From Deltaproteobacteria bacterium (GTDB lineage Bacteria > Desulfobacterota > Desulfobaccia > Desulfobaccales > 0-14-0-80-60-11), in NCBI GenBank assembly GCA_021813445.1, contig JAKAKP010000147.1:1285-65284 (forward strand): a stretch of 64,000 bases of DNA, read 5' to 3'. Shown one piece after another: positions 2,877 through 51,640 of this stretch. Under the pieces are notes generated by a model. That model was given only the letters and a program-made list of their open reading frames with translations, was not told where the DNA came from and ran no database searches. Both the position numbers and the translations under genes were made by a program. Numbering within the stretch: the stretch's first letter is position 1; each line of letters starts with the position of its first letter.

Positions 2877-3952
2877 GGCCCCGGCTCCACTTTCACTTTC
2901 ATGCCATCTTTGAGTTCGTAATTACCCAGCACCACCACCGGCTCCCCGGGCCTCAAGCCGGTCCCTTTGACTTCCACTTCCCGGTCGTTCCCCGGCCCCA
3001 GCTCCACCAAATGCTTCACTGCCGCACCATTATTTAAGGTGAACAGACTATGGCTGCGGCCTTCCGGAAGGACGGCGGCGCGGGGCACAATTAATCCATG
3101 GACGGCAGCTACGGCTATTTCCCCGGAGATGGACTCTCCCAACAGGAAATTCGTGGCGGCCGGCAGAGAGACGAAGACGTCCACCAGGTGCGTGGCCGGA
3201 TTGACGCCGTAGGAGACCTTACGGATATGACCGGTAACCCGCGGAGTCCCAGGGACATTCACCCTGGTCAAGGACACCGGCTGGCGGGGCGCCACCCGGT
3301 TGATGGCATCCGCTTCCAGCCCCAGCCGCACTTCCAGGCGATTTTGCGCCACGATTTCCAGCAAGGGGTTGCCGGCCGGAACAATGGCCCCTTCCTGGGC
3401 GAACACTTTCTTAATTAAACCTCCCACATCGGCATGAATGATGCGGGGAGCCCCAACGCCGCGCTTTTTCAGGCTCTCCAGGCGGGATTGGGCCTGTTGC
3501 AAGGCCTGTTTGGCCTGGAGCACCTGGTCATTGGTGGCCAGCTTCAGTTCAAACTTGCGTTCCATATAGCCCAGGCTTTGCCTGGCCAGGTCATACGCCT
3601 GGCCGGCCTGCTCCAGTTGCAGGGCGGTATCGGGGCTGGGCTTAATCTCCAGGAGATCGTTGCCCTTGGAAACCTTCTGACCCTGGTTGACCATGATCCG
3701 CACCACCTGGCTCTCAAACGGCACGGACACGGTCTGCACCGCGCCCGGGGCCGGGATGACTGTGCCGTAGGCGGCGATATATTCATTAATGGTTCCTTCC
3801 CTGATGGGCGCGGTCCGCACCTGGGCCACCGGCCCCGCGGCTTTGCCGGCGGCTTCCCGGCCCGGCCCTCTCGCCTGGCGCCAGCGCCAGAGGCCCACCG
3901 CCAGGAGCAGCAAAATTATGGCCAAGATAGCAAAGGTTCTTCCCCGTTTCAT
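2873..3952 (-). CDS. RND efflux periplasmic adaptor (MFP)
   Basis: N-terminal membrane anchor, lipoyl/hairpin segments, C-terminal GLRPGEPVVVLG; lies between TolC and RND genes. Confidence 0.9.
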   Translation of the reverse strand: MKRGRTFAILAIILLLLAVGLWRWRQARGPGREAAGKAAGPVAQVRTAPIREGTINEYIAAYGTVIPAPGAVQTVSVPFESQVVRIMVNQGQKVSKGNDLLEIKPSPDTALQLEQAGQAYDLARQSLGYMERKFELKLATNDQVLQAKQALQQAQSRLESLKKRGVGAPRIIHADVGGLIKKVFAQEGAIVPAGNPLLEIVAQNRLEVRLGLEADAINRVAPRQPVSLTRVNVPGTPRVTGHIRKVSYGVNPATHLVDVFVSLPAATNFLLGESISGEIAVAAVHGLIVPRAAVLPEGRSHSLFTLNNGAAVKHLVELGPGNDREVEVKGTGLRPGEPVVVLGNYELKDGMKVKVEPGP

Positions 3953-5322
3953 TATGGCACCGCCTTGTTGGTTCCGTCTCCCAGGTACTCGCCCGCGGCG
4001 ATTTCCAGGGCAATGCGCTGGTCGGCCAGATTCCGCTTCAGTTTGAGCAGCTCCAACTGCCGGGCGATCAGCTCGTCCCGGGCGTTGTAGTAGCTGATGA
4101 CATCGGCGTTGCCCTCCAACAGGGCGTGGTGGTAGGTCTGCACCAGGTTGCTCAGGGTGGGGATGGATTGTTCCGTGGTTTTGATCTGCCGGCTCAGTGC
4201 GGCCATATCGGCCAGGAGCCGCGCGACGTCGGCCCGGGCGGTAAAAAGCCGGCTGACGTATTCGTCAAAGAGCCTTTGCCGGGTCGCCTTTTCCATGGCG
4301 ATACGTCCCTGGTTGCGGTCAAAGATGGGCAGATCGATGGTCACTGCAAAACCGGTGGTAATAACGTGAGTGGTGTCGCTGGCATGGGCAAAGCCGATAT
4401 TGATTTTGGGAACCTGGGCCAGAATCGCCGCCCGGAGGCGCTCTTCCTGGCTCTGATAGCCCATCTTCAGGGCCAGCAGGTCCAAGCGCCGTTCCTCCAG
4501 GTTCCGGCTGATATCCTGCAAGGAAGGAAGCGTCTGCGGCGAAGGAGGGTCCAGGTGCGCCGCCAGGGGCACTTGCTGCTCGGGCGGCAAGCCCAAGGTC
4601 CGGTTCAGGGCCAGGCGCTCCTGCTCCCCCTGCTGCTCGATGGTCTGCACCTGGAGGTGGACCTTTTGCAAGGACGCCTGGGCCGCGGACAGGTTGATAA
4701 TGGTGACATAGCCCAGGTCCAGGGCGCGTTTGACCGTGGCGGCATTATCTTCCAAGCCCTTTTCTTCGTCTCTGGCCACCGTTAGTTGCCGGTCCAGGAG
4801 GGCCAGTCGGTATACCTGCAGCCGGGCCGCCTGGGCTATCTGCCATTCCTGCCAGGCCACGTCCAGGTCCACTGCCGCGGCCTGTTTCCGGGCCGCGGCC
4901 ATTTTGGCGCTCCGGGTCAGGAGAGAAACAATATCCCAACTCAATCCCAGGCCGTAGCCCTTGACGGTCCCCTGGGTGGCCCCGGCCATGGGGATATCTA
5001 GGCTATAAGAGAACTGAGGGTTGGGCAGAATCCCCGCCTGGAGGAGCTGGGCCTGGGCCAGGCCCTTCTGGTCCCGCAGGGCCCGGAGCTGCGGGTTGAC
5101 GATCACCGCCAGGATAGCCGCCTCGTCCGGTGAAAGCCCGTCCCGCAGATCGAAGTTTACCGGCCGCAGCAGGGGATGGTGACTCTGGGAGGCCTGAAGG
5201 GCAACCATCTCCAAGGCCGGCGGCGTCAAGGCCCGGTCCACCGCGGTCTTATCGAGCGGCATCGGGTGGTAGGTAGCGCAGCCGCTGAGCATCAGGATCA
5301 GGAACAGGAGTAATTTGCTCAT
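3952..5322 (-). CDS. TolC-family outer membrane efflux lipoprotein
   Basis: Lipobox LSGC after ATG 5322; PNPQF and LPIFDRNQG motifs. Confidence 0.9.
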   Translation of the reverse strand: MSKLLLFLILMLSGCATYHPMPLDKTAVDRALTPPALEMVALQASQSHHPLLRPVNFDLRDGLSPDEAAILAVIVNPQLRALRDQKGLAQAQLLQAGILPNPQFSYSLDIPMAGATQGTVKGYGLGLSWDIVSLLTRSAKMAAARKQAAAVDLDVAWQEWQIAQAARLQVYRLALLDRQLTVARDEEKGLEDNAATVKRALDLGYVTIINLSAAQASLQKVHLQVQTIEQQGEQERLALNRTLGLPPEQQVPLAAHLDPPSPQTLPSLQDISRNLEERRLDLLALKMGYQSQEERLRAAILAQVPKINIGFAHASDTTHVITTGFAVTIDLPIFDRNQGRIAMEKATRQRLFDEYVSRLFTARADVARLLADMAALSRQIKTTEQSIPTLSNLVQTYHHALLEGNADVISYYNARDELIARQLELLKLKRNLADQRIALEIAAGEYLGDGTNKAVP

Positions 5323-47812: not shown

Positions 47813-47852
<40 letters not shown>

Positions 47853-47916: not shown

Positions 47917-47993
47917 CGCGGGGTGGAGCAGCCTGGAAGCTCGTCGGGCTCATAACCCGAAGGTCGTGGGTTCAAATCCCACCCCCGCTACCA
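47917..47993 (+). tRNA. tRNA-Met(CAT), initiator type; attL
   Basis: 77 nt cloverleaf, unpaired C1, anticodon stem TCGGG/CCCGA, CCA end. Confidence 0.97.
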
Positions 47994-48072
47994 AGCTTGA
48001 AAGCACCAGGTGCGAACTGGTGCTCTCTTAGGGCCTGCCCTGCAGCCTGAAAAGTTAGGGCAGGCCCGTTTT

Positions 48073-48957
48073 TTAGGGAACGACCCTCATCAAACTCTGC
48101 CGACCTAAAACCAATTCGATAATTTTCTCTCCGTCAGGCTTCACCTCCTCCAGATACGAAGCGTATTCAAGAAAGAGCTGATCTGGGCGCGAGTGACCCA
48201 TGGTTTTGGCAACCCATAGGGGATCTTCGCCCGCCGCAATCGAAAGGGAAGCGAAAGTATGCCGAGTAGCGTATAGAGGACGTGGGTCAATATCGAATGC
48301 CCCAAGAATGGCTTTCCAGGCCTTGCGTAGCGCCTGCCTGCTGATGATCCCGCCCTTAGGGTGCGCACTGTAGAAGAACCAGGGCGAGTCCAGTTCGTTC
48401 GCCTGGCGCCGCCGCTGGTAGACTTCCCAGATCGGCCTGAGCAGGGGGACGTCTCTTTCTCCCGCCTTGGTTTTGGTGGTAACCATCTGCCCACAGCTAT
48501 TTGCCCTCCTGATCGAGACTCGCCGCTTCACCAGGTCAAAGTCATCGAAGCGCAGTCCCAGTGCCTCACCGGTTCGAACCCCCGTAAGTATTGCGAATTG
48601 GAAGTAATCCCTGTAGGGGAAGGGAGCGTAGGCCATTATTAGCCGGGCTTCTTCCGGAGACAAGGGCTTAATTTTGGATCCACGCCAGCGAAACCGCGGG
48701 ATCTCGTAGAGGGTCCCGTTCCAGATTTCGCGCCGACGCGCCCAACTCACAAATGACCTGATGGCCGAGATGATGTTGTTCTTTCGCTTTCCCGAGATGG
48801 CCAGCGCCGCCAGGTACTCTTCAAGACCCAGGTTCAGGTCCTCGAAGTTCTCAAAATGAGAGATGTGGTGCTTGAGGATGGACCGATAGTCAAGGTAGGT
48901 GGACGGTTTCAGCCGCCCCTGATAGGTGCGTAGGAACTGGTCAATAATTCCGTTCAT
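48073..48957 (-). CDS. Tyrosine recombinase/integrase
   Basis: TGVRTGEALGL, TKTK, YATRHTFAS, MGHS...Y catalytic motifs. Confidence 0.95.
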   Translation of the reverse strand: MNGIIDQFLRTYQGRLKPSTYLDYRSILKHHISHFENFEDLNLGLEEYLAALAISGKRKNNIISAIRSFVSWARRREIWNGTLYEIPRFRWRGSKIKPLSPEEARLIMAYAPFPYRDYFQFAILTGVRTGEALGLRFDDFDLVKRRVSIRRANSCGQMVTTKTKAGERDVPLLRPIWEVYQRRRQANELDSPWFFYSAHPKGGIISRQALRKAWKAILGAFDIDPRPLYATRHTFASLSIAAGEDPLWVAKTMGHSRPDQLFLEYASYLEEVKPDGEKIIELVLGRQSLMRVVP

Positions 48958-49210
48958 CCCTGGCCCCCTGAGGGATGCCCCAGGCCTGGGCCATCTTGGG
49001 GGACCGCCCAGGCCCAGGGGTTGAGGTTGAAAAGCTTAGCAGGCCTTTCTCCTCGTTCCAACTAATGCAGGTTTTGTTATTGCAATGTCAAGTAAAAAAG
49101 ATTCGTAGTCGCTTCGCTCTGCTATTGATATGCGAGCCTCAATGTGGTTGAAGTAGCGATGTTTGTTAATCGAAAGGCATATAAATAAAAAGGAATAATT
49201 TTACCATCTT

Positions 49211-49297
49211 TCGGGGCGGCATCTGATAATGCAGCATTATGTTAAGACCAGCCTTCAGCAGGTTAACATAATGCGACATTATCAGACGCCGCCCCGA
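49211..49297. repeat. 35 bp inverted repeat made of two dif-like sites
   Basis: TCTGATAA-N7-TTATGTTAA in both arms; 17 nt spacer. Confidence 0.85.
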
Positions 49298-49680
49298 GCA
49301 GCGGTAGACTTTTTCTTATCGGGGGCTGCGTCCCGGCCTCTTCCGGGGCTCCTGGGTTTGCGGGGGGCGCCGGCGCGCCCGGGCGTCCCTGCCCGGGGCC
49401 GGCGCCTGGCTTCTTCCGGTGTCCTCCTTTTGCGGGCGTCTGCCGGGCCTCCGCCCCCGAACTCCCCGCCCGCCCACCTCTCGGAGTCCCGGCTCTGCCG
49501 GGCCAGAAAATTCGCCGCCCGAGGCTCTGCCGTCCGGTGGCCGGCTGCCCATTGCCGGGGAAGAGGGGCGGCCCGGGCGCGAATCTTCATACGCTAAAGC
49601 GAATTCGATTGCGCCCGGGCCGCGCGCGTTTGCCTGGCGCTCTGCCCCCGGCTTCAGGGCAACCGGCCACCGGAACCGGG

Positions 49681-49876
49681 GCCTGAACCCAGACCCTGGG
49701 GGTTCAGCGTAGCAGCGGCCGCCCCAGGGCCGTCCAGGGCGAAATTTTTTCATGGCCATGACCTGGTGATGACCGACCATGGCCATGAAAAAATTTCTAG
49801 ATCCCCAACAGAATGAGGTGCCCTGGACGGCCCTGGGGCTCCGTGCTCGAGTTCAGTTGGGGGTCTGGGTCCAGGC
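49681..49876. repeat. Long nested inverted repeat (bulged hairpin)
   Basis: Perfect 20 bp pairs 49741-49760/49778-49797 and 49721-49740/49820-49839; 15/16 pair 49681-49696/49861-49876. Confidence 0.9.
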
Positions 49877-49974
49877 TTCGCGGCGCGCGTCCGGAGGAGA
49901 GGAGCGGAGTTGAAAGGTTGGGGGCGAGGGTGTCAATTTATTGACAGATCGGGCGAAATCGGTTTTCTTGATTC

Positions 49975-50160
49975 TTGATGAATGAATCTTTAAAGCTGGT
50001 TAGTAAGATGCTGCCGCTTCTCCTGGAACTCGCCCTTCTGGATGATCCCGGCGACGTCGTCGCCGCCAGGCGCTTCCATCTTTACAGCACCACCATTTAC
50101 CGCTGGCTCCGGAACTCCGGGAATGAAATTGTGTTGACCAGGTCAAGGGCCCCTTCGTAA
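49975..50160 (+). CDS. Small HTH-like protein
   Basis: VAARRFHLYSTTIYRW HTH pattern; TTGACA upstream. Confidence 0.5.
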   Translation: MMNESLKLVSKMLPLLLELALLDDPGDVVAARRFHLYSTTIYRWLRNSGNEIVLTRSRAPS

Positions 50161-50303: not shown

Positions 50304-50488
50304 TCTGATAATCCTCTTTCCAGGTCCCCAGGGAGGTGCTCTCCTCTCCATAGTCCATCAATGTTTTGCTCGGGCTCATACTTCATCACCCGCCAGGCTA
50401 TTAGGATTATGAAGATGGCCACCAGCAGCCAATAAAAAGCTACCATTCCCCAAACCATTGGGCTAAGGTCCTGCCACCTTTTACTCAT
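50300..50488 (-). CDS. Small single-TM membrane protein
   Basis: GGAGG RBS; hydrophobic helix; overlaps both neighbours. Confidence 0.6.
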   Translation of the reverse strand: MSKRWQDLSPMVWGMVAFYWLLVAIFIILIAWRVMKYEPEQNIDGLWRGEHLPGDLERGLSE

Positions 50489-50837
50489 TTCCCTCCTCCT
50501 GCAGCCCCTTTTTGAAGCGCTCCATGATTTCCGCCATGAAGCCCTCGAGCCATACGCGCTCTTTCTTGCTCATTTTCACGTCTGAAATTCTGAAAACCTC
50601 TGCTTTTTTGCGTTTTTTCCGCCGCGCCTTCCTCTCCCGCCTGGCGCTGGGCGCCTGGCTGGCCATCATATCTTCCGGGAGGTGCCAGGTCCCGGTCAGG
50701 ATCCGGATCTCGATCCCCAGGCCCTCGCCTTCGATGAGGTCCCAGTTCAAATTTTGCCCGATGAAGAGGTTGCACGCCTGCCTGATTCCCCGGGGAATTG
50801 TGATCTGCCACCGCTGCCTGATGAGCCCTCGCTCCAT
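50481..50837 (-). CDS. AbrB/MazE/SpoVT-like DNA-binding protein
   Basis: QRWQITIPRGIRQACNLFIGQ motif; AGGAG RBS. Confidence 0.75.
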   Translation of the reverse strand: MERGLIRQRWQITIPRGIRQACNLFIGQNLNWDLIEGEGLGIEIRILTGTWHLPEDMMASQAPSARRERKARRKKRKKAEVFRISDVKMSKKERVWLEGFMAEIMERFKKGLQEEGNE

Positions 50838-51547
50838 AGCCTCTCCTGCTCGATGTCGGCCCGCCTGGCCACGCTCTCAACCCAGGCCTGGGCGTTTCGG
50901 GCTTGTCGGTTTCCGTCCTGGATGAAGCGCAACGCCGCAAAAAGCCTGGCTGCCCGCGATCGCTTTTTCGCTTTTGCTCTGGGCGCGATGCGGTATACCC
51001 GCATCTCCATTTTTTCCAGCTCTTCCCCGCTCAGCCTGATCACTTCCTGGAGTAAATCCTTTTGCCCCAGGTCCATCCACGCTTTAAAGCTTTCTTTAAA
51101 CACTCTTAAGCTTAAGCTAAGCTGTGTCTCCGCCTGGCCACCCATGTCCGGGCGCTCCGGCCCCGCCTTGGAACCACCGCCGTTTCCCTGATCTCCACGC
51201 TTGGACATGGGTGTCCAGGTAGGCTTCTCTGAACCCCCATTTCCGCCCCCGCCTGGACATAGGCGTCCATCCGCCTGGACATACATGTCCAGGCGCAACC
51301 TATCCACCAGGTGAACGATGATTTGCCCGGCCTGGTTTTTTGGCCGGTGGAGGACCAGCAGAAAATTCTTTGACTCCAGGCTCAAAAGGTGCCGCAAAAA
51401 TTGCTTGGCGCTATATACTTCCCGCAGCCAGCGGCTTTCCCGGATTCTTGGAACGGTAACTTTCGATGATTCCTGTCGGTTTGCCAGGTCACAGAGGTAA
51501 GTCCAGACCCATAACTCCCCCGGTTGGAGCTTCAGGACCTCATCCAT
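50747..51547 (-). CDS. Putative replication initiator (phage O-like architecture)
   Basis: N-terminal winged-helix-like region; Gly-rich linker whose DNA holds four palindromic repeats and an AT-rich tract. Confidence 0.6.
   Translation of the reverse strand: MDEVLKLQPGELWVWTYLCDLANRQESSKVTVPRIRESRWLREVYSAKQFLRHLLSLESKNFLLVLHRPKNQAGQIIVHLVDRLRLDMYVQADGRLCPGGGGNGGSEKPTWTPMSKRGDQGNGGGSKAGPERPDMGGQAETQLSLSLRVFKESFKAWMDLGQKDLLQEVIRLSGEELEKMEMRVYRIAPRAKAKKRSRAARLFAALRFIQDGNRQARNAQAWVESVARRADIEQERLWSEGSSGSGGRSQFPGESGRRATSSSGKI
51081..51295. other. Putative intragenic replication origin
   Basis: CGCCTGGACA-N4-TGTCCAGGCG-type repeats at 51131, 51198, 51250 and 51272; AT-rich 51081-51123. Confidence 0.65.
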
Positions 51548-51582: not shown

Positions 51583-51632
51583 TCGGGCTCATAACCCGAA
51601 GGTCGCAGGTTCAAATCCTGCCCCCGCTACCA
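51583..51632 (+). repeat. attR (3' part of tRNA-Met)
   Basis: TCGGGCTCATAACCCGAAGGTCGCAGGTTCAAATCCTGCCCCCGCTACCA. Confidence 0.95.
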
Positions 51633-51640
51633 AGAAATCC

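Follow-up and report, generated by a model that had tools for sequence, protein, structure and literature searches.

Mirror-image copies of the host dif in a 3.64 kb tRNA-Met-integrating element: a putative Xer module on an element with its own integrase

Most known cases of mobile elements that borrow XerC and XerD from their hosts are filamentous phages, a small number of genomic islands, and plasmids of well-studied Proteobacteria. The attachment site of the CTX phage of Vibrio cholerae, attP(+), carries two inverted dif-like XerC/XerD sites on one strand; according to PMC4246890, these lie 90 bp apart and have spacers of 12 and 5-7 bp, which leaves the folded form as the only substrate. 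CTX is described as an element without an integrase, found at dif, whose single-stranded DNA arises by rolling-circle replication. In the same account the attP of VGJ, which likewise has no integrase and integrates at dif, is a single 29-bp dif-like site. The plasmid sites cer (ColE1) and psi (pSC101) are presented in PMC5357621 as single sites, each with some 180 bp of accessory sequence to which PepA binds together with ArgR or ArcA; cer has an 8-bp spacer and its strands are exchanged by XerC only. Both act only in direct repeat (PMC5357621; 10.64898/2026.02.23.706985), and modules flanked by Xer sites have been described as well (PMC7399989 and PMC10132070).

We have analysed a stretch of 64,000 nucleotides (the window), in which an initial annotation had noted two inverted dif-like sites forming a foldable hairpin inside an element with an integrase of its own. 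The carrier of the hairpin is a 3.64 kb element located in a tRNA-Met gene and bounded by 52-bp direct repeats of tRNA-Met (Table 1); the exact blocks of the left repeat (47944-47966, 47969-47979 and 47982-47995) recur at 51583-51634. The claimed integrase was confirmed as a 294-aa tyrosine recombinase matching Pfam PF00589. It lacks an arm-binding N-terminal domain and is not an orthologue of XerD (29.3 bits, NCBIfam cut-off 329.6) or XerC (22 bits, cut-off 335). Since the integrase is not a Xer orthologue and the att sequence is the 3' half of tRNA-Met, with no similarity to the dif-like arms, these sites are not its core sites.

Table 1. Features of the element and its target gene (positions in the window).
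Feature	Position	Strand	Evidence
tRNA-Met (CAT), target of integration; left att copy formed by its 3' half	47917..47993	+	ARAGORN; Rfam tRNA, 61.2 bits
attL, left 52-bp repeat; two mismatched dinucleotides in the T-stem	47944..47995	+	Exact-match blocks
294-aa tyrosine recombinase, the element integrase	48073..48957	-	Pfam PF00589 (6.4e-15), PF14659; PHROG 1 integrase (3.1e-49)
AT-rich block holding the hairpin, 38-50% GC per 100 nt	49030..49320	.	GC profile, blastn, three-way alignment
Core hairpin	49211..49297	.	Sequence, inverted-repeat search, DNA fold
dif-like site 1, GCATCTGATAA-TGCAGCA-TTATGTTAAGA	49219..49247	+	Arms 17/22 against host dif (9+8); genome-wide arm scan
dif-like site 2, GCGTCTGATAA-TGTCGCA-TTATGTTAACC	49261..49289	-	Arms 19/22 against host dif (10+9); arm scan and order pattern
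Nested second hairpin, larger and of unrelated sequence, also in this non-coding region	49681..49876	.	Inverted repeats I2, I3, I6
61-aa ORF, weak helix-turn-helix signal	49975..50160	+	Translation; Pfam HTH_28, E 0.019, below cut-off
118-aa ORF	50481..50837	-	Translation; tblastn to L113, L114; no Pfam family
266-aa element-specific protein	50747..51547	-	Homologue search, structure model, winged-helix matches, atlas leads
Three 22-nt palindromic iteron-like repeats within the 266-aa gene	51197..51292	.	Direct-repeat family D1
attR, right 52-bp repeat of the tRNA-Met 3' half; right end of the element	51583..51634	+	Repeat match, sequence

The hairpin has a 35-bp stem with three mismatches and a 17-nt loop, as verified by a check of the sequence, the arm 49211-49245 (TCGGGGCGGCATCTGATAATGCAGCATTATGTTAA) pairing with 49263-49297 around the loop 49246-49262. 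Its fold as a single DNA strand has an energy of -38.2 kcal/mol, compared with -13.3 +/- 2.3 for shuffled sequences (z -10.7), and none of 200 shuffles folded as well; the sequence and the fold thus bear out the two inverted sites, 17 nt apart, as first described. The description of the stem also held, in that two of the three mismatches sit side by side at the centre of the 7-nt spacer, albeit this placement alone is not significant (p ~0.07 by a hand estimate, or ~0.3 if the adjacent pair is taken as one event). An inverted-repeat search lengthened the arms to 53 nt with 79% complementarity (49193-49245 and 49263-49315), the outer part being weak. The outer 8 bp of the stem, beyond the dif-like sites, form a G+C-rich clamp. 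The 9-mer TTATGTTAA occurs twice in the window where 0.05 copies are expected, a count reached in none of 100 shuffles. The hairpin is surrounded by non-coding DNA that separates an upstream gene set from the start of the integrase at 48957; one of its flanks is an AT-rich stretch, the opposite one consists of G+C-rich repeats. The sole Rfam family found in the window was tRNA. Contigs built separately from four public runs contained the identical sequence without any difference, and the hairpin is therefore not an artefact of a single assembly. Neither hairpin variants nor informative joints were found in these runs, three of which may be the source of the sequence; one joint across the element, with a shorter side of 24 letters and 13 foreign letters in between, was rejected as probably stemming from the tRNA-Met of another organism.

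The chromosomal dif of the host was securely identified as ACGTCTGATAA-TATATA-TTATGTAAACT, with a 6-bp spacer, at 3187-3214 of contig C66. Its 20-nt core recurs with at most one mismatch in 37 of 40 relatives, and a pattern of its invariant positions, GTCTGATAA-N6-8-TTATGTNAAC, is present in 78 of the 83 genomes of the order (no matches for the reversed control), where it is single-copy per genome apart from three extra sites. In G027, a relative assembled as a single contig, cumulative skew of GC computed over 400 kb has its maximum at 2,230,254, roughly 400 bp away from the dif site (2,230,628-652), with a change in skew from +0.018 to -0.036. A dif site has thereby been defined for a whole bacterial order. 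The host possesses a XerD gene on contig C141 at 3124-3987 (362.5 bits, cut-off 329.6) and encodes, at 13595-14467 of contig C31, a XerC-like protein that falls just under its cut-off (330.3 bits, cut-off 335.15). One genome of the order, G016, has two dif copies, which looked like a possible element at dif, but one of them is flanked by housekeeping genes (carA, a Kdo transferase gene and a NUDIX gene); the second copy is possibly a strain duplicate or due to assembly. The extra site of genome G021 (on contig C9) has a 7-nt spacer, is single rather than paired and lies beside AT-rich foreign DNA; it was rejected as a junction at dif, as it is on another contig and the dif of G021 is in native synteny.

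Each of the two inverted 29-bp sites of the hairpin is built as XerC arm, spacer and XerD arm (11+7+11). Comparison of their arms with the host dif had been set beforehand as a check, and against the independently identified dif they match at 19 of 22 positions in site 2 and at 17 of 22 in site 1. Apart from dif, nothing in the 4.18 Mb genome matches as well as site 2, and no site scores 18; site 1 ties with three chance sites, which lack the inner ATAA/TTATG. The matches of the sites fall on these inner positions, at Xer-type spacing, and include the clade-specific XerC arm. Moreover, site 2 has all 9 invariant XerC-arm bases and 9 of the 10 invariant XerD-arm positions of the order's dif, fits the invariant-position pattern and is one of its only three extra sites in 83 genomes. 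Since the sites are mirror-image copies of the host dif, it is very probable that they would be bound by the host XerC and XerD.

The overlap regions agree only in part. Next to the XerC arm the spacers read TAT in dif, TGT in site 2 and TGC in site 1, and the first base is common to both sites and dif but the remainder is not; strand exchange between site 2 and dif would give a T-A pair, a G-T wobble and a T-A pair. The 7-nt spacers and the location inside a mobile element are not features of a chromosomal dif, the true dif being on C66. A length of 7 bp fits the range of 6-8 bp that is given for Xer sites in PMC5357621.

The proposed likeness to the CTX attP was borne out by the inverted arrangement (PMC4246890): both have inverted XerC/XerD sites on one strand that form a hairpin, arms modelled on the host dif and an imperfectly paired spacer, and one of the CTX sites has a spacer of 5-7 bp. 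In contrast to CTX, the element has an integrase, sits in tRNA-Met and has equal 7-nt spacers in sites 17 nt apart, each of which looks complete by itself as a duplex, and no rolling-circle gene was found among its ORFs. Each half of the hairpin resembles the 29-bp VGJ site, also in having a spacer unlike that of dif on the XerD side, a difference that would confine the reaction to XerC (PMC4246890). Unlike VGJ, there are two inverted sites, on an integrase-bearing element that is flanked by tRNA-Met repeats and not located at dif. With cer and psi the hairpin shares the presence of a Xer core site on a small mobile element, with dif-like arms and a non-dif spacer of 6-8 bp; it differs in being a palindromic pair, on a candidate replicon, with no accessory region identified in the element. 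The pdif modules of Acinetobacter are similar in that pairs of XerC/XerD sites lie in opposite orientation on a mobile replicon, but pdif pairs flank modules of hundreds to thousands of base pairs, whereas here the sites are only 17 nt apart and make up one hairpin. Small tRNA-integrating elements with tyrosine integrases (islets and integrative plasmids) have the same 52-bp repeats of a tRNA 3' half and an integrase beside the tRNA, but the sister elements lack a look-alike of the host dif, and our literature search met none in such elements at the level of abstracts.

In the reading that is best supported, to which we assign a probability of about 0.4, the hairpin is a lineage-specific XerCD-binding module, and the host Xer proteins would resolve multimers of the excised circle. 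Both 29-bp sites appear to be modelled on the order's own dif, and they stand head-to-head within non-coding DNA of the element. The element would excise as a small circle and then replicate by means of a winged-helix initiator-like protein and the iteron-like repeats. XerCD would recombine each site with its identical copy in the multimer to give monomers, as cer and psi do for small plasmids, and the 7-bp spacers, unrelated to the TATATA of dif, would prevent full recombination with the chromosome. In support of resolution, an identical site in a multimer offers perfect spacer homology, whereas dif shares only the first spacer base with both sites. Against it stand the absence of the block from the sister elements, the read depth given below, and the fact that plasmid resolution sites are single sites with long accessory sequences and not tight palindromic pairs (PMC5357621). 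Besides, both the 8-bp G+C clamp and the palindrome look selected for folding, and resolution explains neither. We know of no description of such a compact palindromic form among plasmid resolution sites.

The leads to a replicating circle come from the 266-aa protein and the repeats in its gene. Only six homologues of this protein were found among 5.8 billion proteins. Its structure model (pLDDT 62) has an N-terminal winged helix, a disordered Gly-rich linker and a C-terminal helical domain, and structure matches were limited to generic winged helices (Foldseek E > 0.1; VIA Z up to 8.3). The nearest named atlas clusters are all of replication initiation (HTH_36, DnaD, RepA_N and Phage_rep_O at 0.93-0.94, with fewer than 170 shared features). 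These weak leads make the protein a candidate replication initiator or organiser and point faintly to theta-type initiators. The sister element G447 has three 23-nt repeats (family D3) at the place equivalent to 51197-51292. The 61-aa ORF is a possible excisionase or regulator. The 118-aa ORF shares 67-70% identity with both sister elements over its N-terminal 33 residues and was judged AbrB-like by inspection only. The second hairpin is located 370 nt from the core hairpin; the DNA at 49670-49890 has a folding energy of -78.9 kcal/mol (z -9.7). In four public runs of one study the contig of the element had 0.6-1.2x the depth of its flanks, or approximately one copy per chromosome, and these samples therefore give no hint of an episome that replicates. 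Many contigs of 3.3-4.5 kb carry homologous integrases, but these are not proof of free circles, because the integrated copy here likewise assembles as a 3.65 kb unitig broken at the att repeats.

Sister elements were compared as DNA in two complete cases (G447, 4,015 bp; G440, ~3.45 kb) and at two partial loci (L024 and L025), all with integrases 52-61% identical to that of the element. Sisters of 3.4-4.0 kb occupy the same tRNA-Met in two related genomes, and a family of tRNA-Met mini-elements of this size has thus been delimited as a by-product. The repeat, which in the initial annotation was to be looked for in sister elements, is not kept there: neither the hairpin nor any dif-like site is present in G447, G440, L024 or L025, and G447 has GC-rich DNA (60-77%) in place of the AT-rich hairpin block, as seen in the GC profile, blastn and alignment. 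The closest relatives of the integrase (P0009-P0011, 76-86% identical) are known from a protein database, and the DNA comparison is that with the 52-61% set. As the sisters lack the block, it is, judged from these comparisons, a lineage-specific acquisition, and its function is therefore dispensable for the element family.

In the other 82 genomes of the order, a blastn search with 49150-49330 met chance matches only (20-37 nt, E at least 0.002), and no second copy of the block was found in the host genome or in those 82. The pattern TTATGTTAA-N5-40-TTAACATAA occurred in 6 of 400 other genomes of the phylum, compared with 4 for the reversed control, in no case with a dif-like left arm. None of 2.9 million viral contigs had the exact site pattern; a looser one (one full arm plus the inverted XerD-arm pair) occurred in 35, with 34 of the matches one-sided, and the sole two-sided match was rejected as AT-rich low-complexity sequence with arms of 22/31. 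Protein scans of metagenome and genome collections yielded two useful partial loci and one distant locus among the matches listed. The viral collection held integrases of at most 34% identity and no relative of the 266-aa protein, no integrase was found at E <= 1e-60 in the 400 other genomes of the phylum, and plasmid and phage collections matched the tRNA-Met fragment only. Reading frames through the hairpin, used as a proxy for sister hairpins, had no match in the protein collection (0 of 4).

The initial annotation had proposed that the hairpin serves a second, Xer-dependent route of integration or resolution. Of the two, resolution is the better fit, and integration is a possibility that we consider unlikely. 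The block would then be an attachment site, used either as a CTX-like folded hairpin or as a VGJ-like 29-bp duplex. In this scheme the host XerC would swap one strand pair with the chromosomal dif, the insertion would be completed by replication, and the element would gain a fallback for when tRNA-Met is unavailable. Two inverted, foldable dif-like sites are the hallmark of the CTX attP, whose attP2 spacer is 5-7 bp, and VGJ manages with one 29-bp site (both from PMC4246890); the arms match the host dif, and the 8-bp clamp, the short loop and the two unpaired spacer positions would suit a folded substrate. A second large hairpin is present nearby, and for site 2 the pairing with dif predicted above adds to these points. 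On the other hand, the element has its own integrase and a place in tRNA-Met, and the unequal spacers and 90-bp distance of the CTX sites, as described, are not seen here. Related elements inserted at dif, which the earlier proposal had led one to look for, are missing: in the 83 genomes of the order neither an element relative nor an extra site adjoins dif, the second copy in G016 having housekeeping genes as its flanks and the extra site of G021 being no junction at dif. Nor did the implied single-stranded stage find support, as none of the ORFs in the 3.64 kb matched an HUH Rep, a rolling-circle Rep, a relaxase or a phage morphogenesis gene in Pfam, PHROG or NCBIfam, and the sole large unassigned protein is the winged-helix protein with its weak theta-type leads. 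Because the sisters lack the block, no element is found at dif, no gene for a single-stranded stage was seen and a single spacer base is common to dif and the sites (the only one that site 1 shares with dif), integration is not the best-supported reading. The bolder form of the idea is still harder to credit: a dual-route integrative mini-element would use its own integrase for tRNA-Met and a self-folding double-dif hairpin, formed from a transient single strand or as a cruciform on the supercoiled circle, for recombination with dif by the host XerC.

Somewhat less probable than integration is that the Xer proteins bind the sites for another purpose, either at a relic or docking point of Xer module exchange or at an operator or insulator upstream of the integrase that XerCD would occupy. 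The first version would be comparable to the inversely oriented pdif pairs of Acinetobacter, with 17 bp in between, and could have been the entry route of the AT-rich block. The orientation XerC-XerD/XerD-XerC is the one that flanks dif modules, the block is an AT-rich insertion specific to the lineage relative to the sisters, and another dif look-alike with a 7-nt spacer in the order, that of G021, also lies beside AT-rich foreign DNA. Yet that site is single, no cargo lies between the two sites of the hairpin, and neither the host nor the other 82 genomes of the order hold a second copy of the block. The operator version is favoured by the location of the block, which has the upstream gene set on one side and the start of the integrase on the other, but we know of no precedent for the regulation of an integrase by Xer binding.

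It is quite improbable that the palindrome is unrelated to Xer, with a function as terminator, insulator, single-strand initiation site or origin cruciform and a merely coincidental likeness to dif. The high stability of the hairpin, its place in non-coding DNA that separates gene sets and the second, unrelated large hairpin nearby would agree with this, and so would the score of site 1, which alone is no better than that of the three chance sites. From the score distribution (28 sites at 16, three chance sites at 17 and none at 18), approximately 0.05 sites are expected at 19 or above, an estimate that is not vanishingly small. Coincidence is, however, hard to reconcile with the invariant bases of both arms in site 2, with matches that fall on the inner positions at Xer-type spacing, or with an order pattern that has true extra sites in only 3 of 83 genomes and none for the reversed control. 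Nor is the palindrome an intrinsic terminator: a terminator scan calls two small sub-hairpins (2, shuffle mean 1.6) but not the palindrome, on neither strand is the 35-bp stem followed by a T-run at a distance of up to 2 nt, and Rfam finds the tRNA alone. An integron attC was dismissed, as the recombinase scores 17.3 bits against a cut-off of 265 bits for integron integrases and the conserved end boxes would presumably sit at the wrong end of the stem, and so was a MITE or repeat family, the block being single-copy in the genome.

The element described here, 3.6 kb long, tRNA-integrating and with an integrase of its own, belongs to an uncultured lineage and bears a pair of Xer sites matched to its host. 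If Xer does not bind, the hairpin is a curious palindrome only. If Xer does act on it, two systems of site-specific recombination can be united in tiny integrative elements, and the hairpin would be a minimal natural substrate for asking whether XerCD takes hairpin or cruciform sites outside CTX. Should the dual route be true, CTX-style hairpin integration would no longer be confined to filamentous phages, but would extend to a non-phage element that has an integrase and resides in an uncultured bacterium of mine drainage.

The initial annotation had described an inverted pair of dif-like sites forming a 35-position stem with three mismatches, two of them in the 7-nt centre, and this description proved accurate in both coordinates and fold. 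An inverted-repeat search paired 49211-49245 with 49263-49297 around a 17-nt loop; the wider inverted repeat has 53-nt arms (79%), weak in the outer portion beyond the core stem. The folding energy of the hairpin as single-stranded DNA was -38.2 kcal/mol, compared with -13.3 +/- 2.3 for 200 shuffled sequences (z -10.7), none of which equalled it, and TTATGTTAA occurs twice in the window against 0.05 expected. Each arm holds one 29-bp unit (site 1 and site 2), and the stem base outside both sites is a clamp of 8 extra G+C-rich base pairs. The two mismatches in the spacer centre adjoin each other, a clustering that, taken alone, we estimate not to be significant. The hairpin sequence was the same, with no differences, in independently built contigs from four public runs.

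Features of the tRNA-Met element and of its sister elements
Feature	Position	Strand	Details
tRNA-Met gene	47917-47993
tRNA-Met 3' half, left copy	47944-47995		recurs at 51583-51634 with two mismatched dinucleotides
Tyrosine recombinase, 294 aa	leftmost gene in element	-	Pfam PF00589; PHROG 1 integrase, 3.1e-49
AT-rich block with hairpin	right of recombinase gene
Site 1	49219-49247	+	GCATCTGATAA-TGCAGCA-TTATGTTAAGA
Site 2	49261-49289	-	GCGTCTGATAA-TGTCGCA-TTATGTTAACC
Second, nested hairpin, 196 nt	49681-49876		G+C-rich non-coding stretch; -78.9 kcal/mol, z -9.7
Small helix-turn-helix-like ORF	right of G+C-rich non-coding stretch
Three small ORFs	between helix-turn-helix-like ORF and 266-aa gene	-
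Sister in genome G447	L113 3074-7138 (G447:C214)		integrase 61%; 4,015 bp; perfect 50-bp tRNA-Met repeats; no dif-like site
Sister in genome G440	L114 5919-9400 (G440:C2)		integrase 52%; about 3.45 kb between tRNA-Met repeats; no dif-like site
Sister L024	partial metagenome locus and upstream DNA		integrase 59%; no dif-like site
Sister L025	partial metagenome locus and upstream DNA		integrase 58%; no dif-like site

The two copies of the tRNA-Met 3' half bound a 3.64 kb element, with housekeeping genes on both sides (aromatic amino-acid genes and an MFS transporter to the left, a phosphotransferase-family gene to the right). From left to right it carries the recombinase, the AT-rich hairpin block, the G+C-rich non-coding stretch, the helix-turn-helix-like ORF, the three small ORFs and a 266-aa protein. 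The recombinase scores far under the NCBIfam cut-offs for both XerC and XerD. The second hairpin contains perfect 20-nt arm pairs (I2, I3) plus I6, and its sequence is not related to that of the dif-like one. For the 266-aa protein no family match was obtained, and six homologues were found among 5.8 billion proteins. In its model (pLDDT 62) a disordered Gly-rich linker joins a winged helix at the N-terminus to a helical domain at the C-terminus, and fold searches matched it to nothing more specific than generic winged helices (Foldseek E > 0.1, VIA Z up to 8.3). Among named atlas clusters the closest (0.93-0.94) are HTH_36, DnaD/DnaB_2, RepA_N and Phage_rep_O, all replication-initiation families; they give leads rather than proof. 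This gene contains three palindromic repeats of 22 nt (51197-51292), and the equivalent place in the G447 sister (L113 6682-6796) has three 23-nt repeats of different sequence; both sets are iteron-like and may mark the replication origin of the element. A CCG insertion at 49392, in the G+C-rich non-coding region of one contig from run X1 (depth 11.9 of 25.1), is a population polymorphism inside the element.

The att copies (47966-47982 vs 51605-51621) differ by a compensatory dinucleotide pair in the T-stem, which reads GTGGG...CCCAC in the intact tRNA and GCAGG...CCTGC at the right end of the element. Since the GCAGG form is also found in the tRNA-Met of G447 and in the right-end copy of G440, it seems that the element arrived from another host with a tRNA 3' half of its own and that the crossover fell to the left of the T-stem. 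An exact 27-nt duplicate of the tRNA-Met anticodon-arm region (47940-47966) is present at 47813-47839, some 100 nt upstream of that gene, and may have been left behind when an element integrated or excised at this tRNA in the past.

A comparison with the arms of the host dif had been proposed, and a genome-wide motif search identified that site as ACGTCTGATAA-TATATA-TTATGTAAACT in an intergenic gap (G000:C66:3187-3214). All 28 bp are kept across ten aligned loci, and 37 of 40 relatives carry the 20-nt core with no more than one mismatch. A pattern of the invariant positions (GTCTGATAA, 6-8 nt, TTATGTNAAC) was found in 78 of the 83 genomes of the order, once per genome except for three extra sites, and its reversed control gave 0 matches in the same genomes; completeness is 56-92% in the five genomes lacking a match. 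Cumulative GC skew, followed over 400 kb of the single-contig relative G027, has its peak about 400 bp away from dif, and the skew shifts from +0.018 to -0.036. The C66 site is the dif of the terminus. Among the host proteins are XerD (362.5 bits, cut-off 329.6) and one that matches XerC best, slightly below cut-off (330.3 against 335.15 bits).

The arms of site 2 match the host dif at 19 of 22 positions (10+9), and those of site 1 at 17. When both strands of the 4.18 Mb genome were scanned with spacers of 6-8 nt, site 2 ranked directly after dif, with no site at 18 and 28 sites at 16. Site 1 was level with three chance sites, which lack its inner ATAA/TTATG. Site 2 also fits the invariant-position pattern, being one of the three extra matches. 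In dif sites it is the XerC arm that varies with the taxon, and the full match of site 2 to the invariant XerC-arm bases of the order thus argues for adaptation to the XerC of this host. The host Xer proteins probably bind the element sites. The sequence given above for the host is the dif of the order as a whole, in which the 7th XerD-arm base varies (A or C); G040, one genome from another family of the phylum, has T, as do the element's sites.

The initial annotation had named a repeat not conserved in sister elements as evidence against its reading, and none of the sisters compared here has the repeat. About 100 integrase homologues (50-86% identity) were recovered, many on contigs of 3.3-4.5 kb and the metagenomic ones mostly on 1-4.5 kb; such contigs do not speak for free circles, since breaks at the att repeats turn even the integrated copy into a 3.65 kb unitig. 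Four sisters with integrases 52-61% identical, the closest (76-86%) not being among them, were compared as DNA, and all four lack a dif-like site. TTATGTNAA is absent from 9 kb around the G447 element and 12 kb around the G440 element, and the AT-rich block (38-50% GC, against 60-77% at this position in G447) has no counterpart in the G447 alignment. The hairpin is thus a lineage-specific addition. The element and the G447 and G440 sisters share the integrase (broken by 2 TAG stops in G440) and the N-terminal parts of the winged-helix protein (33%) and of the 118-aa ORF (67-70%). This mini-element family of 3.4-4.0 kb occupies the same tRNA-Met across one bacterial family.

Other dif-like sites were seen in the order. 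On contig C9 of G021 (L120 1086-1114) a single 29-bp look-alike, ATGTCTGATAA-TTTTACA-TTATGTAAACT, borders an AT-rich, metallophosphoesterase-encoding foreign block (29-38% GC) at the contig start, the true dif lying elsewhere in native synteny; dif look-alikes with a 7-nt spacer thus recur outside dif, and this one may serve a different mobile element as its Xer site. In G016 dif is present as two identical copies (L118 12409-12432, C25; L119 5330-5353, C32) whose left flanks are similar; one copy is only 330 bp away from the end of a contig. Beyond the C32 copy come housekeeping genes (NUDIX, Kdo-transferase and carA), and after these a block of 30-36% GC where the contig starts. The duplicate could equally be an element at dif, a strain duplicate or an assembly effect.

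Known Xer systems were compared as two papers describe them. The attP of CTX has a pair of dif-like sites in inverted orientation, 90 bp from each other, with spacers of 12 bp and 5-7 bp; its folded plus strand is the sole substrate, XerC alone catalyses the exchange, bases adjoining the XerC arm determine specificity, and the phage has no integrase, while the VGJ attP is one 29-bp duplex site (PMC4246890). At cer, whose 8-bp spacer is within the 6-8 bp norm, only XerC carries out the exchange; the site comes with accessory sequences of about 180 bp and functions in direct repeat only (PMC5357621). The element resembles CTX in its foldable inverted pair, VGJ in its 29-bp units, and cer in the logic of a small replicon whose site joins dif arms to a spacer unlike that of dif. 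However, it has its own integrase and equal spacers (7 and 7), unlike CTX; it is not at dif, unlike CTX and VGJ; and its sites are paired, unlike VGJ and cer, with no accessory region identified. As it misses defining features of all three, the hairpin was not filed under any of these classes. A limited search of the literature turned up no account of a tRNA-integrating element that has both an integrase and a paired dif-like hairpin.

Our main reading, with a probability of roughly 0.4, is that the element, once excised, replicates as a circle whose multimers are resolved by host XerCD bound at the sites. It best fits three points, namely that a dedicated integrase is already present, that the spacers are perfectly homologous to themselves only, and that the block is dispensable in sisters. 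Neither the palindrome nor the G+C clamp is explained by it, and the depth of the element relative to its flanks, 0.6-1.2x in four runs from a single study (three possibly the source), gives no sign of an episome. CTX- or VGJ-like integration at dif would suit the foldable design but is unlikely: the element lies in tRNA-Met, its spacers are unrelated to the TATATA of dif save for the first T, and no rolling-circle Rep, relaxase or phage morphogenesis gene was found among its genes with Pfam, PHROG and NCBIfam. Nor were the related elements at dif that had been suggested encountered, no second site adjoining dif in the 83 genomes. Xer binding in another role, as a module-exchange relic or an operator or insulator, is slightly less likely still, and a structure unrelated to Xer is the least probable of the four; a small share of the probability was given to none of these readings.

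Overall, the initial observation was confirmed and its interpretation partly supported: a second Xer-dependent route for integration or resolution gains from the dif-matching arms, with resolution favoured, but loses from the absence of the block in sisters and of elements at dif. Under multimer resolution, each site in a multimeric circle would recombine with its own identical copy through the XerCD of the host.
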